From the NCBI GenBank assembly GCA_040767965.1, contig JAXGNR010000010.1:32001-96000 (forward strand): a stretch of 64,000 bases of DNA, written 5' to 3'. A model generated the notes under the pieces. That model worked only from the letters and a program-made list of their open reading frames with translations. It was not told the DNA's origin and searched no databases. The first letter of the stretch is position 1. The number at the start of each line of letters is the position of its first letter. Shown piece after piece: positions 1,325-33,449 of the stretch. This DNA comes from Atribacterota bacterium. Its GTDB lineage: Bacteria; Atribacterota; Phoenicimicrobiia; Phoenicimicrobiales; Stramentimicrobiaceae. Both the position numbers and the translations under genes were made by a program.

Positions 1325-1807
1325 ATGAAGATCCCTACAGAATTAAAACATAAGCCCGTTATTGTTTCAGAAGAATACAATAAGATTGACGGGAGAATGG
1401 CTCATGATTCAGATGCAAAAGGATTATCTTTAGGGTTGGCACAATGGAACGACAGGGGTAATCTGGAAATATCTGCTAAAATATGGAGGCATACTGGAGA
1501 AAAATGGTCTCGACAATCAGAAGAAATGCCCTTCCATAGAGTGCTTGATCTGGCAATTCTAATCTGTAAAACAAGAAAGATTTTCCTGGAAAGATATCAC
1601 AAAAATGAAAAGGATTTTCCACATTATCCATTACTTGATAGAATTGGGCTGCAGGGTGGGGCTATGAATGTAGCAGTCTGCACTGAAAATGAGCATATTG
1701 ATACAGATATGAATTTATTTGATGATTGCCTGCATAAAGATGATGAAATAATAAGCGAAAGACTCAGTGTTCTCTATGAATTATTAAAAGAGATTAAGGA
1801 AATATAA
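1325..1807 (+). CDS. DUF6530-like conserved hypothetical protein
   Basis: MKIPTELKHKPV...KGLSLGLAQWNDRG...KWSRQSEE signature recognised; strong RBS. Confidence 0.75.
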   Translation: MKIPTELKHKPVIVSEEYNKIDGRMAHDSDAKGLSLGLAQWNDRGNLEISAKIWRHTGEKWSRQSEEMPFHRVLDLAILICKTRKIFLERYHKNEKDFPHYPLLDRIGLQGGAMNVAVCTENEHIDTDMNLFDDCLHKDDEIISERLSVLYELLKEIKEI

Positions 1808-2179
1808 TATAAAAATATTTTATTGATACTATAGAGAAGTTTAAGCTTGTCCTGAAATTATTTGTATAATAGTCATAGCAATCACTAAAGCTGATTTAAA
1901 ATTATCAATTAATTCAGTATGTTAATTTTGTATTACTATCACAATAATATGAATACCTACTTATTTTGCTGATTAAGTTGTATAATATATATAAAATCAG
2001 AATTGAGCGAATTAAGTAAAATATTTTTTAATTAATGTTGATATGTTGAATACACAATAATATAAAAATAGTTCCGAAATATAAAATAGAAAGGAGCTGG
2101 ATATAGAATTTTCAAAAATTAATAATAATAGAATAATTTTTAGTATCTTTCTTTTTTGTAATTTTGGAGGTTAATAATA

Positions 2180-3163
2180 ATGAAAAAAATACCTTTTATT
2201 AATAGAAAAATAATTTTTCTTATTCCTATCCTGGTACTGTTGTTCTTGTTTTTATGTGTTTCAGTAAATGCCCAACAATTAAAATATGGGACTCTTGCTA
2301 TTAATTCTAATCCAAAAGGGGCTAAAGTTTATCTTGATAATGACTATAAAGGAGAAACACCGTTAGAGTTAAAAAATATTTCAACTGGCCAATATACTCT
2401 TAAGATGACTTTAGATGGCTATGAAGATTGGACCAGTACCGTGATTATATTGCCAGTGCTAACTGTAAGGGTTACAACTGATCTGGTTCCTAAAGAGAGA
2501 GTAGTAGAATCCGGTTCTGTCGCTGTCAATTCAAATCCTCAGGGAGCAAGAGTCTACCTTGATAATGACTATAAAGGAAATACTCCTATAAATTTAAGAG
2601 AAGTTAGACCTGGAAGACATAATATTAAAGTCACTCTTTCAGGCTACGAAGAATGGATAACTAATATTACTATTACCCCATCTAAAGTAGAAAGAATTTA
2701 TGCTGATTTAAAAGTTTTAGAAGATTATGGCTCAGTTTCTATCAATTCTAGTCCCCAGGGAGCAGATATTTATTTAAATGAAGAGTATAGAGGATTAACC
2801 CCTCTTAACCTGCAAAACATTGCAGCTGACAAATATACAGTTAAAGTGTCTTTGCCTGGATATGAGGAATGGATTGAAGATATTACAATCTCACCTGGTA
2901 AAACAGCAAGAGTATATGCTGAATTAGAATCTCGTCCTGCCTATGGTTCTATACCCATTTATTGTGAGCAAAAAGGTGCCCAGATATTTTTAAATGGAGC
3001 TTATGTAAAAGATATTGATAGCAATTCAATGGTACTGGCTAATATCAAAAGTGGGAAATATGAGATTGTCATACTTCAAGATGGATTCCGGGCTTGGATT
3101 AAAGATATAGAGGTTTTTAAAGATGAAACAACAGCAATAGATGTTATTATGACTAAAATTTAA
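2180..3163 (+). CDS. secreted PEGA-repeat protein (four repeats)
   Basis: Signal peptide; repeated INSNPKGAKVYLD...KG.TP...GYEEW units. Confidence 0.9.
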   Translation: MKKIPFINRKIIFLIPILVLLFLFLCVSVNAQQLKYGTLAINSNPKGAKVYLDNDYKGETPLELKNISTGQYTLKMTLDGYEDWTSTVIILPVLTVRVTTDLVPKERVVESGSVAVNSNPQGARVYLDNDYKGNTPINLREVRPGRHNIKVTLSGYEEWITNITITPSKVERIYADLKVLEDYGSVSINSSPQGADIYLNEEYRGLTPLNLQNIAADKYTVKVSLPGYEEWIEDITISPGKTARVYAELESRPAYGSIPIYCEQKGAQIFLNGAYVKDIDSNSMVLANIKSGKYEIVILQDGFRAWIKDIEVFKDETTAIDVIMTKI

Positions 3164-30216: not shown

Positions 30217-31155
30217 ATGGTTAAAATTGCCAGTGATATAACTGAACTGATTGGGCATACTCCATTAATTAGTTTAAATAGAATAACTGAAAACACTGAG
30301 ATAAAGATTATTGCAAAACTGGAATTTTTCAATCCGGGAGGCAGTATAAAAGACCGAATTGGTTTACATGATAGTAGCTGCAGAAAAACAGGGAAGTGTT
30401 TTAAAAAGATTCTGTAATTGTTGAGCCAACCAGTGGGAATACACAGGAACTGTAACTTTGGCTTTTGTTTGTGCAGTTAGAGGATACAAATTGATTCTTA
30501 CCATGCCGGAGACAATGAGTGTTGAGTGAAGAAAATGCTGGAAATATTTGGGGCTGAGATTGTTTTAACTCCAGGGAATGAAGGCATGCAGGAGTCATCA
30601 GTAAAGCAGAAGAGATTGTCAGAAGAATCCACAATCTTTTATGCCTCAGCAATCAATAATCCTGCTAATCCTGAAATTCATCAAAGAACCACCGTGATTG
30701 GAAATCTGGGAAGACACAGAGGGCCATAAGATATCCTGGTTTCTGGAGTGGGAACAGAGGAAATAATAACTGGGATATCCTTGCAATCAAAAAGATGAAA
30801 TCATCAGTTAAAACAATTGCAGTCGAACCTGCGAATTCTCCCTGTCTTTTCCGGCGGAGAGCCTGGTGTATACATAAAATTCAGGTATTGGTGCTGGTTT
30901 TGTAAGCCAGCTATTCTAGACAGAAGTATTATTGATGAAATAATCAAAGTTACTGATTTATGTAGCTTTAATTTAGTGCTGTACACTTGCGAAAGAGGAA
31001 GCGAATTTTACAGGTATATCTGCAGGTGCAGCAGTCTGGGCAGCACTAAAGATAGCCAGCAGGAAAGAAAATAAAGAAAAACAACTTCAGAAACATTCTT
31101 CCGGAGGCCCCATATGGTCTTTGCTTGTCTTTCAACTGAGCTTTTTCAAGACTAA
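30217..31155 (+). pseudogene. cysK: cysteine synthase A with multiple frameshifts
   Basis: LIGHTPL, KLEFFNPGGSIKDRI, VEPTSGNT, NPANPEIH and STELFQD* spread over several frames. Confidence 0.88.
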
Positions 31156-31194
31156 AAAGATAGTTGTAAAGATAGTTGGGTCTATAATTGAAAA

Positions 31195-31440
31195 ATAACA
31201 TTCAACTATAGAATAGTCTGATCAATCAGGATAGTCAAACAACTTTCTTTGTGCCAGAATAATACATATGGCCGAAGGAGCATTTGTGGCTTTTGGGGTT
31301 TGTCCAAAGACAACTTGTTTGTCTTAGGTGACTCGATCTGAACTGCCGGATGTTCCTCGGCCTCCTGTATAAGTCTAATGGGAAGATGCCTTTAAAGTGG
31401 CTATTATAGACGCGATAATACAGGAGGCCAGGCCACAAAA
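31195..31440 (+). ncRNA. predicted IS110 bridge RNA; 5' and 3' limits approximate
   Basis: Stem GGCCTCCTGTAT/ATACAGGAGGCC encloses ATGGGAAG (equals right-end sequence) and ATTATAGA (reverse complement of TCTATAAT at the left end). Confidence 0.75.
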
Positions 31441-31455
31441 CAGGAGGAGAAGAAA

Positions 31456-32661
31456 ATGAAAAGACTATCCGGTGGAATCGATATCGGAAGATACACACAT
31501 CATATGATTATTCTGGATGAGAAAGAACAGATCCTATACCAGAGGAGCCTACCCCATCAATTAGGGGAAATAAAGGAAACCATGAAACAGTTGAAATCTT
31601 TACAGAAAAAAGAAAATGCTCAGCTTTCCTTTGCCTTAGAGGGTAAAAACGGTTACAGTAATCCCCTGGACCGGCTGCTTTTATCCGAGGGTTTTACTCT
31701 CTACAATGTGGATAATTACAAACTCAAACGCTTCCGGGAGGCATTTGCCGGAGAGTGGCGGGATGATAACAGAGATGCCCTGATGCTCTCTAAGATGCTA
31801 AACTTAAAAGAACATATTAATGCTAAAAAGGAAAAGGTCTTTATCGAAATAACAAAACCTTCCCTCATTCCTGAAAGCTTGAAACTGTTTTCCCGTCATC
31901 AGCAGCTTTTAATTGATGAAAAGATCAGACTGACCAATCGTCTGGGCAAGAAATTGCTGGAAGTCTGTCCTGAGCTATTAACCTTGGGTAAATTAAAATA
32001 TCAGAAGATCATTGCCATCCTGGCCAAATATCCGGATTTTTCAAGATACTCCAGGATAACCCTCAAATCTCTGTTAAAGATACCGGGAATCGGCAAAAAG
32101 CAGGCACCACACCTATTGGCCGGGTTGCATGAGTTAGCCTATATGCCAGACCTAACTGATATTTACAAAACCATTATCTCCTCCTATAGCAGACGTATCC
32201 TGCAATTACAAAAAGAGATCAAAGAAATTGATACAAAGATGGACGAAATAGGACAACAGGATAATTCAATCAGACATTTAAAGAGCATACCCGGAGTAGC
32301 GACCAAACTGGCCAGCCGCTTTCTTGGAGAAATCGGTGATATCAGCCGTTTCCCCTCAGAGAAGAATTTAGCCATCTACTGTGGTATCGCCTGTGTTAAC
32401 AATGCTTCCGGTAAAACGAATAAGATCAAAGCAGTCTATAAGGCCAACAAGATTGCCAAACAAACCTTGATTATGATGGCCGGCTGCAGTATCCGGGTGA
32501 ATCCTCAGTGTCGGGATTATTATCTCAAAAAACGAACAGAAGGGAAAGCTCATAATCATGCCCTGAGATGTCTGGCCAGGCAGATGATTAAAGTCATTTA
32601 CCGGATGCTAACCGAAGACAGAGATTATCAGATAAAAAGAGAAGCTTTGAAAGTGGCATAA
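31456..32661 (+). CDS. IS110 family DEDD transposase/recombinase
   Basis: GIDIG, ALEG, DNRDA (DEDD); LKSIPGV, EIGDISRF, NASGK serine motif; intact 401 aa. Confidence 0.95.
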   Translation: MKRLSGGIDIGRYTHHMIILDEKEQILYQRSLPHQLGEIKETMKQLKSLQKKENAQLSFALEGKNGYSNPLDRLLLSEGFTLYNVDNYKLKRFREAFAGEWRDDNRDALMLSKMLNLKEHINAKKEKVFIEITKPSLIPESLKLFSRHQQLLIDEKIRLTNRLGKKLLEVCPELLTLGKLKYQKIIAILAKYPDFSRYSRITLKSLLKIPGIGKKQAPHLLAGLHELAYMPDLTDIYKTIISSYSRRILQLQKEIKEIDTKMDEIGQQDNSIRHLKSIPGVATKLASRFLGEIGDISRFPSEKNLAIYCGIACVNNASGKTNKIKAVYKANKIAKQTLIMMAGCSIRVNPQCRDYYLKKRTEGKAHNHALRCLARQMIKVIYRMLTEDRDYQIKREALKVA

Positions 32662-32702
32662 AAAAAGTTTAAAAATTAATTGATTTTTCAGATGGGAAGT
32701 TC

Positions 32703-32760
32703 ATTAGTTCCAACATTTGACATTGTCTTAGTGAAATGTCAAATGTTGAGACCTGACCCC
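32703..32760. repeat. REP-like palindrome interrupted by IS110
   Basis: CAACATTTGACATT (32711-24) / AATGTCAAATGTTG (32735-48); terminal AGACCTGACCCC. Confidence 0.7.
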
Positions 32761-32807
32761 TGAACTGTAATTATCTGCCCGTTAAAAGCAATGGAGGTTA
32801 ATTTCTG

Positions 32808-33449
32808 ATGTTTAAAATTTTAAAAGAAGATATCCAAAATGTATTTGCTAAAGATCCTGCTGCCAAGAGCGTATTAGAAGTTATTCTATGTTATCCAGGC
32901 CTTCATGCTATTTGGCTTCATCGTGTTGCTCACTGGCTCTATAAAGTTAAATTATATACTATTGCCCGAATCATTTCTCATATCAGTCGCTTTTTGACTG
33001 GTATCGAAATACATCCTGGTGCCAGAATAGGGAGAAGATTTTTTATTGATCATGGTATGGGGGTTGTGATTGGAGAAACAACTGAAATTGGGGATGATGT
33101 TCTTCTATATCAGGGAGTTGTCTTAGGCGGGAAAAGTATGGAAAAAAAGAAACGCCACCCAACTTTGGGTAATAATGTAATAATCGGTGCTGGAGCAATC
33201 ATTCTCGGTGCCTTAAACATTGGAGATTATGCAAAGGTAGGTGCCGGGACAATTGTTGTAAAAGATGTTCCCTCTCATTCAACTGTTATGGGAATTCCAG
33301 GGAAGAACAGTAAAGATTTTAATACAGGGAAAACTGACACAGAAAATCCTGATAAATTATCTATACCTGTATCAAAATTAATTCTCTGGCCTCTGGAAGA
33401 ACAGGGGAAAAGTGAAAATAAGCATAGTAATTGTAATATAAAAAAATGA
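32808..33449 (+). CDS. cysE: serine O-acetyltransferase
   Basis: [35 protein letters not shown]. Confidence 0.93.

Follow-up and report, generated by a model that had tools for sequence, protein, structure and literature searches.

Insertion sequences of the IS110 family were described in 2024 to encode bridge RNAs, which were predicted in 85.7% of the catalogued IS110 elements (Durrant et al., 2024, PMC11208160). In IS621 the first loop of this RNA reads the target and the second one the donor; the 5' sides of the loops pair with the bottom strand over 8-9 nucleotides (nt), the 3' sides with the top strand over 4-7 nt, and the core is included in the guides (PMC11208160). Once strands have been exchanged, two bases 3' of each right guide, the handshake bases, pair with the other DNA at its positions 6-7, and recombination is blocked when these bases can pair with their cognate DNA (Hiraizumi et al., 2024, PMC11208158). 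In the present study a window of 64,000 nt from the genome of an Atribacterota bacterium (GenBank assembly GCA_040767965.1, contig JAXGNR010000010.1, positions 32,001 to 96,000 of the forward strand) was analyzed, and all coordinates are positions in this window. An earlier reading of this DNA, hereafter the original prediction, had proposed a bridge-RNA-like guide loop at the left end of an IS110 element. Our analysis makes it very probable that 31181-32702 is an intact IS110-group insertion sequence, the left end of which encodes a canonical two-loop bridge RNA at about 31270-31434 (Table 1).

The ends of the element were mapped with homologues. A protein search returned 635 relatives at E <= 1e-20; scanning genome contigs with the single protein gave four loci, too few for covariation, and an alignment-based scan of metagenome contigs gave 242 stretches, from which 80 loci were kept, together with the window 81 sequences. 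Left ends could be checked in the 67 sequences with 290 nt or more upstream; of these, 65 begin with TC+TATAATT (64) or TC+TACAATT (one), the exceptions being L061 and L084. Right ends were parsed in 75 of the 81 sequences and all read ATGGGAAGT, followed by TC (74) or TT (one); L042 and L087 have different right ends, and four loci contain too little sequence to parse. The flanks vary between loci and TC alone is common to both junctions, therefore the crossover is placed within TC, the core that had been proposed originally. Assembled DNA contigs of two public runs depart from the window sequence exactly at 31178 and 32703, and a second copy in the own genome (contig 8, 90% identical) begins at 31178, its similarity fading over the last ~30 nt, to ~32692. 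From the second copy, the metagenome homologues and the contig break points it follows that the element spans 31183-32700 plus one TC on each side. Terminal inverted repeats and a long target duplication are lacking, and the short core TC stands at both junctions. The RNA lies in the longer, left non-coding end (31183-31455, 273 nt), the right end (32662-32700) measuring only 39 nt. An AG core was also considered, since the left donor guide would then run on into the core without a gap, and was rejected, as TC is all that the second copy and the homologues have in common in their flanks.

Evidence for the assignment comes from the target-binding loop (loop 1, 31291-31344). For 64 insertions with distinct flanks, Watson-Crick pairs between the 7-nt right guide and the right flank were counted and compared with shuffled guides and sites: 411 of 448 positions pair, against a shuffle mean of 367.6 (standard deviation, sd, 5.6), and none of 10,000 shuffles scored as high. 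With G-U pairs allowed the count is 425 vs 403.5 (sd 2.8), again with 0/10,000 as high. All seven positions pair in 44 insertions, six in 11, five in five, and four or fewer in four. The right flanks of the homologues fall, after TC, into few classes (AGGTC, AGGCT, AAATC, AAGTC, AGATA and others), and the guide alleles follow them: AGCCUGA stands at TCAGGCT in 8 of 10 cases, GAUUUGA at TCAAATC in 3/3 and GACCUGA at TCAGGTC in 32 of 37. A blind scan of variable RNA columns against flank positions, trivial self-matches aside, arrived at the same antiparallel register, with 31335, 31336 and 31338 complementary to target positions +5, +4 and +2 in 44, 43 and 46 of 51 cases, respectively. The original prediction had regarded the target guides as not cleanly readable, with only TGAC pairing with a target GTCA. 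Comparison of homologues makes the right guide readable at 31335-41, and GGUGAC, which hardly varies, does not follow the target, the covarying stretch lying 6 nt further 3'.

Natural insertions go into the arms of a REP-like (repeated extragenic palindrome) sequence, GGGG-TC-AGGTC, a palindrome common in this bacterial order. The arm GGGGTCAGRTC... is present in nine copies in the own genome (contigs 4, 10, 11, 17 and 19) vs none for the reversed-pattern control, many matches to the palindrome were found in related genomes of the same order, and one member of the family lies beside the element at 32711-32760, with its perfect right arm at 32737-60 on the minus strand. The guide of the window copy predicts TC-AGATC and, by G-U pairing, tolerates AGGTC. 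It is shared by copies at AGATA (two) and AGGTC (two), and AGATA also follows 32702 in loose contig ends of two DNA runs.

On the 5' side of loop 1 a left target guide is proposed, which reads GGGGUU in the clade of the window. Its four G positions are identical with the flank in 39-55 of 56 cases and each core position in 37 of 56; with G-U pairs allowed, the G positions reach 50-56 and the two core positions 37 and 56 of 56. Bases to the left of GGGG match at chance level. The last four bases of the left flank (n = 64) are GGGG in 42 insertions, AGGG in 17, GAGG in two, GGGA in one and TGGG in one (the window), the remaining one being a mis-hit of the regular expression. Recognition would thus comprise GGGG-TC-NNNNN, in which the right guide determines the five N. 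It was also observed that the left guide (31295-31300) and part of the right guide (31335-31339) are mutually complementary and paired in the predicted free RNA, and that their variants change together (GGGUC/GACC, GGGCU/AGCC), which reflects the GGTC-A-GGTC repeat in the target. This guide-guide pairing might keep loop 1 closed until the target is met.

The donor-binding loop (loop 2, 31371-31417) was found much as originally described. Its basal stem (31359-70/31418-29) is perfectly complementary over 12 base pairs (bp); the 5' side holds ATGGGAAG at 31378-85, which recurs at 32692-99, there followed by T and then TC; and the 3' side holds ATTATAGA (31403-10), the reverse complement of TCTATAAT at 31181-88. 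The GCC/GGC cap (arms at 31388-90 and 31399-401) and, in loop 1, the AAGACAA/TTGTCTT hairpin (31307-13 and 31319-25) are present as well, as is the shared motif, which occurs once in each loop as GTCCA...GACTCGAT and GTCTA...GACGCGAT. The two donor guides thus match the joined ends over 8 nt + 8 nt, the right one covering the core, in the left-guide/right-guide geometry reported for IS621 (PMC11208160). Both have the standard form in 68 of 74 parsed homologues, and two more differ in the right donor guide only, which brings those with the left guide kept to 70; the right donor guide has its usual form in 72 of the 74, the other two carrying a G-T wobble variant. In the 64-kb window the two 8-mers occur five and six times on both strands (shuffle means 2.76 and 7.51), and that both of them abut independently mapped termini is far from chance. 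Because donor ends and donor guides are almost invariant among the homologues, covariation between them gives no signal.

Two capped internal loops in the 5' non-coding end constitute a fold which is supported by covariation in 72 distinct homologous sequences. The segment 31270-31455 folds with -68.4 kcal/mol (z = -4.85; 0/200 shuffles as good), and its opposite strand with -51.3 kcal/mol (z = -2.93). A covariance model on homologous left ends, which the original prediction had suggested as a check, was built from 60 distinct left ends; it matched 80 places and within the window this region only. Here the fold covaries, as does the right target guide with the insertion site. In the model-fitted alignment of 72 distinct rows, a fitting which favours structure, 89.9% of cells pair and two-sided changes occur at 18 of 57 pairs; the covariation score was 0.145 vs 0.098 in shuffled alignments (0/500 as high) and 0.016-0.059 when partners were slid by 1-3 columns. 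RNAalifold on a plain MAFFT alignment recovered the same helices with four compensated pairs. Two-sided changes affect all six pairs of the loop 1 cap hairpin (helix 3) and 8 of the 12 pairs of the donor-loop basal stem (helix 4), and one pair of the target-loop basal stem appears as GC in eight rows vs AU in 49 and GU in 11. An outer closure by TTTGTGGC (31283-90) and GCCACAAA (31432-39) had also been proposed. These segments are complementary and mostly pairable in the 72 rows, and the helix is possible; its changes are one-sided only, and it competes with the basal stem of loop 1 (31276-90/31345-57), which has two-sided changes.

The bases 3' of the right guides are consistent with the IS621 handshake rule, according to which their partners lie beside the core in the non-cognate DNA. 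The target-loop AC was found in 75/75 sequences, its A standing opposite the donor T and mismatched to the target G, and the first donor-loop base is C in 75 of 77 matches of the regular expression. A further trait seen at the ends is the putative promoter TTGATT-17-TATAAT, which was called, with a 10/12 match, on a natural junction of right end, TC and left end in L084. This locus holds a circularly permuted copy of a related element (L084:1120-1200, L084:2420-2650), which starts in the DNA of the donor-loop cap, spans the open reading frame (ORF) and the joint of right end, TC and left end, and stops just past the left donor guide; GGGG-TC and AGGCT stand on its two sides, in agreement with its own right target guide. 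In the simplest reading, a circle was integrated via the donor-like sequence of its own loop 2 DNA. At the right joint of L084 one base seems to be missing.

The protein, predicted originally to be an intact RNA-guided recombinase, fits that description not only by the guide-target covariation reported above. It scores 160.3 bits against the curated cut-off of 140 of NCBIfam NF033542 ("IS110 family RNA-guided transposase"), by which NCBI already names such proteins RNA-guided, and it matches PF01548 (E = 2.7e-18) and PF02371 (E = 1e-21). Its only relatives in the PDB are IS621 (8wt6, E = 1.6e-4) and ISCro4 (9t56, E = 4.8e-4), with the C-terminal domain alone aligned confidently; in this part S318 is aligned to the IS621 serine. 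E62, D104 and D107 fall on the acidic residues of IS621 within a weak N-terminal stretch (-1.2 bits), and D9, outside of it, was assigned from invariance and the Pfam DEDD-domain match (residues 7-172). All five residues are invariant in 14 homologues of 71-100% identity.

By analogy with IS621 a cycle can be proposed, in which the chemistry, the transcription, the binding of the protein and the part assigned to the left target guide are taken over from that system. The element would leave as a circle with right end, one TC and left end joined, and the joined ends would set TTGATT and TATAAT 17 nt apart and thereby create a sigma-70 promoter for the bridge RNA and the recombinase gene. Loop 2 would then hold the circle junction and loop 1 the target, and the handshake bases (AC in loop 1, C in loop 2), pairing only with the core-adjacent base of the other DNA, would favour strand exchange. 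The DEDD/serine recombinase (S318) would exchange strands at TC and leave target-TC-element-TC-target with no other duplication, insertions going into the arms of the REP-like palindrome.

Several observations weigh against the assignment of a working bridge RNA. The left target guide does not covary with its flank (311 of 2000 shuffles as high), because the near-invariant GGGG flank hardly varies; five registers, with and without wobble, were tried and none beat shuffling, register 0 being kept for its highest identity. In the free RNA the GGGG bases pair with the right guide and might therefore serve the structure alone. The left donor guide pairs neither with the core C nor with the base that precedes the core, unlike the core-included rule of IS621; in IS621, left donor position 7 is unusually mismatch-tolerant (PMC11208160; PMC11208158). 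Four of the 74 homologues (L033, L063, L092, L094) carry another left donor guide, UUCAGAAG, and still end in ATGGGAAGT; UUCAGAAG equals the right end with five bases skipped, and its four carriers have differing target guides. The shuffle statistics of the guide-target comparison ignore the kinship of the elements. An Rfam scan of 30900-33000 (4227 families, E up to 10) yielded chance-level matches only and no bridge RNA. Concerning expression, six of the listed sequencing runs are RNA libraries, and four runs were examined as assembled contigs, from which starts, ends and strand cannot be read. The RNA-library run with most of the sequence has contigs over 31178-31682 and 31950-32653, which may be DNA carry-over, and the hint of expression is therefore weak; gaps in the coverage by RNA runs carry no meaning. 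No joint across the element ends was met among the assembled contigs, which is no argument against a circle. Finally, the window copy pairs with its own site, TGGG-TC-ATTAG, at 3/7 positions of its guide.

This last point leads to the alternative that survives best, namely that the family is RNA-guided and the window copy itself is stranded at a site unmatched by its guides, in a decaying region, and may no longer move. We consider this unlikely, with some weight left to it. Its flanks are outliers among the 64 insertions, the left one being the only TGGG and the worst-fitting, the right one among the three worst, and the only other copy in the genome is a pseudogene with a degenerate right end. 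Upstream of the element a cysK-like frame (30217-31074) is split into several short ORFs in different frames and looks like a pseudogene; two relatives sharing the cysE region possess a different, intact gene upstream of cysE, the 3' end of which is recognisable at window 32762-32810, and no pre-insertion site was found in these two relatives. A half-matched insertion, as described for IS621 in the abstract of a 2026 preprint, or later decay of the flanks could account for the misfit. Against stranding stand the intact ORF, donor ends, loops and promoter hexamers, the statement of a preprint abstract that excision relies on recognition of the donor arm and not of the target flank, and the presence of elements with an identical protein at other sites in metagenomes (L015; loose contig ends).

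It is far less probable, to the point of being hardly tenable, that the end matches act as DNA, with the direct repeat ATGGGAAG and the inverted repeat TCTATAAT/ATTATAGA being subterminal binding sites of a recombinase that uses no guide RNA. Such matches are equally visible in DNA, the near-constant donor sequences allow no test by covariation, and in L084 the DNA of loop 2 was seemingly used as a donor-like site. However, the covariation of 31335-41 with the adjoining host DNA over 64 insertions is left unexplained by repeats internal to the element, and a fold with two-sided changes, many G-U pairs and a + strand better by 17 kcal/mol, together with a protein that passes the curated model for RNA-guided IS110 transposases, argues for RNA. 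Equally remote is a mere leader controlling translation of the recombinase or stability of its transcript, with the end matches as by-products: the structure does lie directly upstream of the ribosome-binding site (31442-49) in the orientation of the ORF, and for the IS110 member ISPpu9 a modulation of recombinase expression by small RNAs was formerly assumed (PMC11208160), but that site is not sequestered in the predicted fold and a leader has no reason to follow the insertion-site sequence or the handshake rule. The bridge RNA is retained as the most probable reading of the left end.

Table 1: Positions of the features assigned to the IS110-group element and its flanks in the 64,000-nt window.
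Feature	Position	Strand	Basis or remark
Left target flank TTGGG	31176-31180	+	usually GGGG in homologues
Left TC core copy	31181-31182	+	only sequence common to both junctions
First bases of left end TATAAT (right donor), also putative -10 box of junction promoter	31183-31188	+	homologue ends
Conserved 5' leader of left end	31189-31269	+	homologue alignment
GGCC, 5' half of outer helix with GGCC 31431-34	31270-31273	+	helix 1: 99.3% of cells paired, one-sided changes only
Target-loop basal stem, 5' strand, pairs with 31345-57	31276-31290	+	fold, covariation
Proposed left target guide GGGGUU (GGGGUC in most homologues)	31295-31300	+	equals target top-strand GGGG + core; inferred
Target-loop capping stem-loop: GUC/GAC clamp + AAGACAA/UUGUCUU hairpin	31302-31332	+	helix 3
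Right target guide GAUCUGA, predicts target TC-AGATC	31335-31341	+	covariation with right flank
Putative target-loop handshake bases AC	31342-31343	+	complementary to last donor bases GT (32699-700), not to target GG
Target-loop basal stem, 3' strand	31345-31357	+	fold, covariation
Donor-loop 12-bp basal stem, 5' strand	31359-31370	+	helix 4
Left donor guide AUGGGAAG	31378-31385	+	identical to right-end terminus 32692-99, top strand
Donor-loop capping hairpin GCC/GGC	31388-31401	+	helix 6: 99.5% of cells paired
Right donor guide AUUAUAGA	31403-31410	+	complementary to TC+TATAAT, 31181-88
Putative donor-loop handshake bases CG	31411-31412	+	C complementary to last target base G, not to donor T
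Donor-loop 12-bp basal stem, 3' strand	31418-31429	+	sequence, fold, covariation
Shine-Dalgarno-like AGGAGGAG before recombinase start	31442-31449	+	read in sequence
IS110-family DEDD/serine recombinase, 401 aa (amino acids), intact	31456-32661	+	Pfam, NCBIfam, PDB match, homologues
TTGATT, putative -35 box of junction promoter	32680-32685	+	17 nt before TATAAT (31183-88) once ends are joined
Right-end terminus (left donor) ATGGGAAGT	32692-32700	+	sequence and homologues
Right TC core copy	32701-32702	+	homologues; DNA contig departs from window sequence after 32703
Right target flank: degenerate left arm + perfect right arm of REP-like palindrome	32703-32760	+	arm search

In the conserved leader preceding the fold (31189-31269) no convincing conserved hairpin was seen by single-sequence folding and by inspection of the homologue alignment by eye. 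Two further traces of the element were noted in the own genome. The second copy (L002, contig 8, ~1478-3062) has a bridge-RNA region nearly identical to that of the window and is a pseudogene with no ORF above 89 aa on the recombinase strand, a degenerate terminus and a 33-bp hairpin inserted in its right end. On contig 4 (L004:1501-1533) a solitary stretch of 33 bp is identical to window 31178-31210 and continues into unrelated sequence. This remnant of a left end, located at a GGGG-TC site, comprises GGG, TC and the initial 28 bases of that end.

A search of the literature brought up no publication on this clade and, for the nearest IS name, one unrelated match; the ortholog tables in the supplement of PMC11208160, which lay outside that search, may list the clade or TC cores. 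With rather less than even confidence we put forward that the clade is a functionally distinct flavour of bridge recombinase. Such a flavour may combine a TC core with a left donor guide which leaves that core unread, and may derive its specificity from GGGG-TC, read by a left guide of 4+2 nt, and a reprogrammable right guide of 5 nt. It may further include target guides zipped on each other in the free RNA, at least eight natural right-guide alleles that retarget the element among REP variants, and donor-loop DNA serving as a decoy donor, which would give rise to circularly permuted insertions as in L084. Bridge recombinases are under development as programmable DNA-insertion tools, for which natural diversity is the raw material, and the metagenomes used here (anaerobic digester, landfill and others) supply a system with a TC core together with dozens of natural guide-target pairs. 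For genome annotation it is of note that the structured region of 158 nt belongs to an insertion sequence and not to a host regulatory RNA.

The left target guide aside, all testable traits of IS110-group bridge systems were found at this locus, and production and activity of the RNA are presumed by analogy with them. Among the closest of these systems is IS621 of Escherichia coli (PMC11208160; PMC11208158), demonstrated by experiment, the window system being known from sequence. The two have in common the DEDD RuvC-like and serine Tnp domains, a long left and a short right end, a 2-nt core at both junctions, a promoter that re-forms where the ends are joined, the order of target loop before donor loop with 5' sides directed to the bottom and 3' sides to the top strand, handshake bases that pair with non-cognate DNA, and REP-type targets. 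They differ in that the proteins are very distant (401 aa here vs 328 residues in the IS621 PDB chain), the core is CT there and TC here, the apparent left target guide has 4+2 nt here vs 8-9 nt in the 5' sides of IS621 (PMC11208160), the left donor guide here skips the core C and the preceding base, and an extra GUC/GAC clamp is present here in the target-loop cap.

ISCro4 (IS622; PDB 9t56; 10.1101/2025.05.14.653916) shares family and C-terminal domain (E = 4.8e-4) with the window element; it is a close relative of IS621, as distant from the window protein as the latter, and was compared by protein only. Members of the IS1111 group with their seekRNA, or right-end bridge RNA (Siddiquee et al., 2024, PMC11187229), likewise combine a DEDD recombinase with RNA-guided site choice, whereas their RNA lies in a long right end and their inverted repeats of 7-17 bp are subterminal, unlike the left-end RNA and the 39-nt right end found here. 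ISPpu9 and ISPpu10 of Pseudomonas putida (PMC12288879; 10.64898/2026.03.19.712850), also of the IS110 family, insert into repeated extragenic palindromes too, but live in another host phylum and are likened here by description only. The original prediction had considered a distinct two-loop scaffold; each loop consists, however, of left guide, capping stem-loop, right guide and handshake bases, as in IS621. As a protein remote from IS621 and ISCro4 follows the same logic of guides, core and handshake, the present system adds evidence that the mechanism is general. Its architecture is canonical, and where it departs from IS621 it varies the published design without forming a new scaffold.

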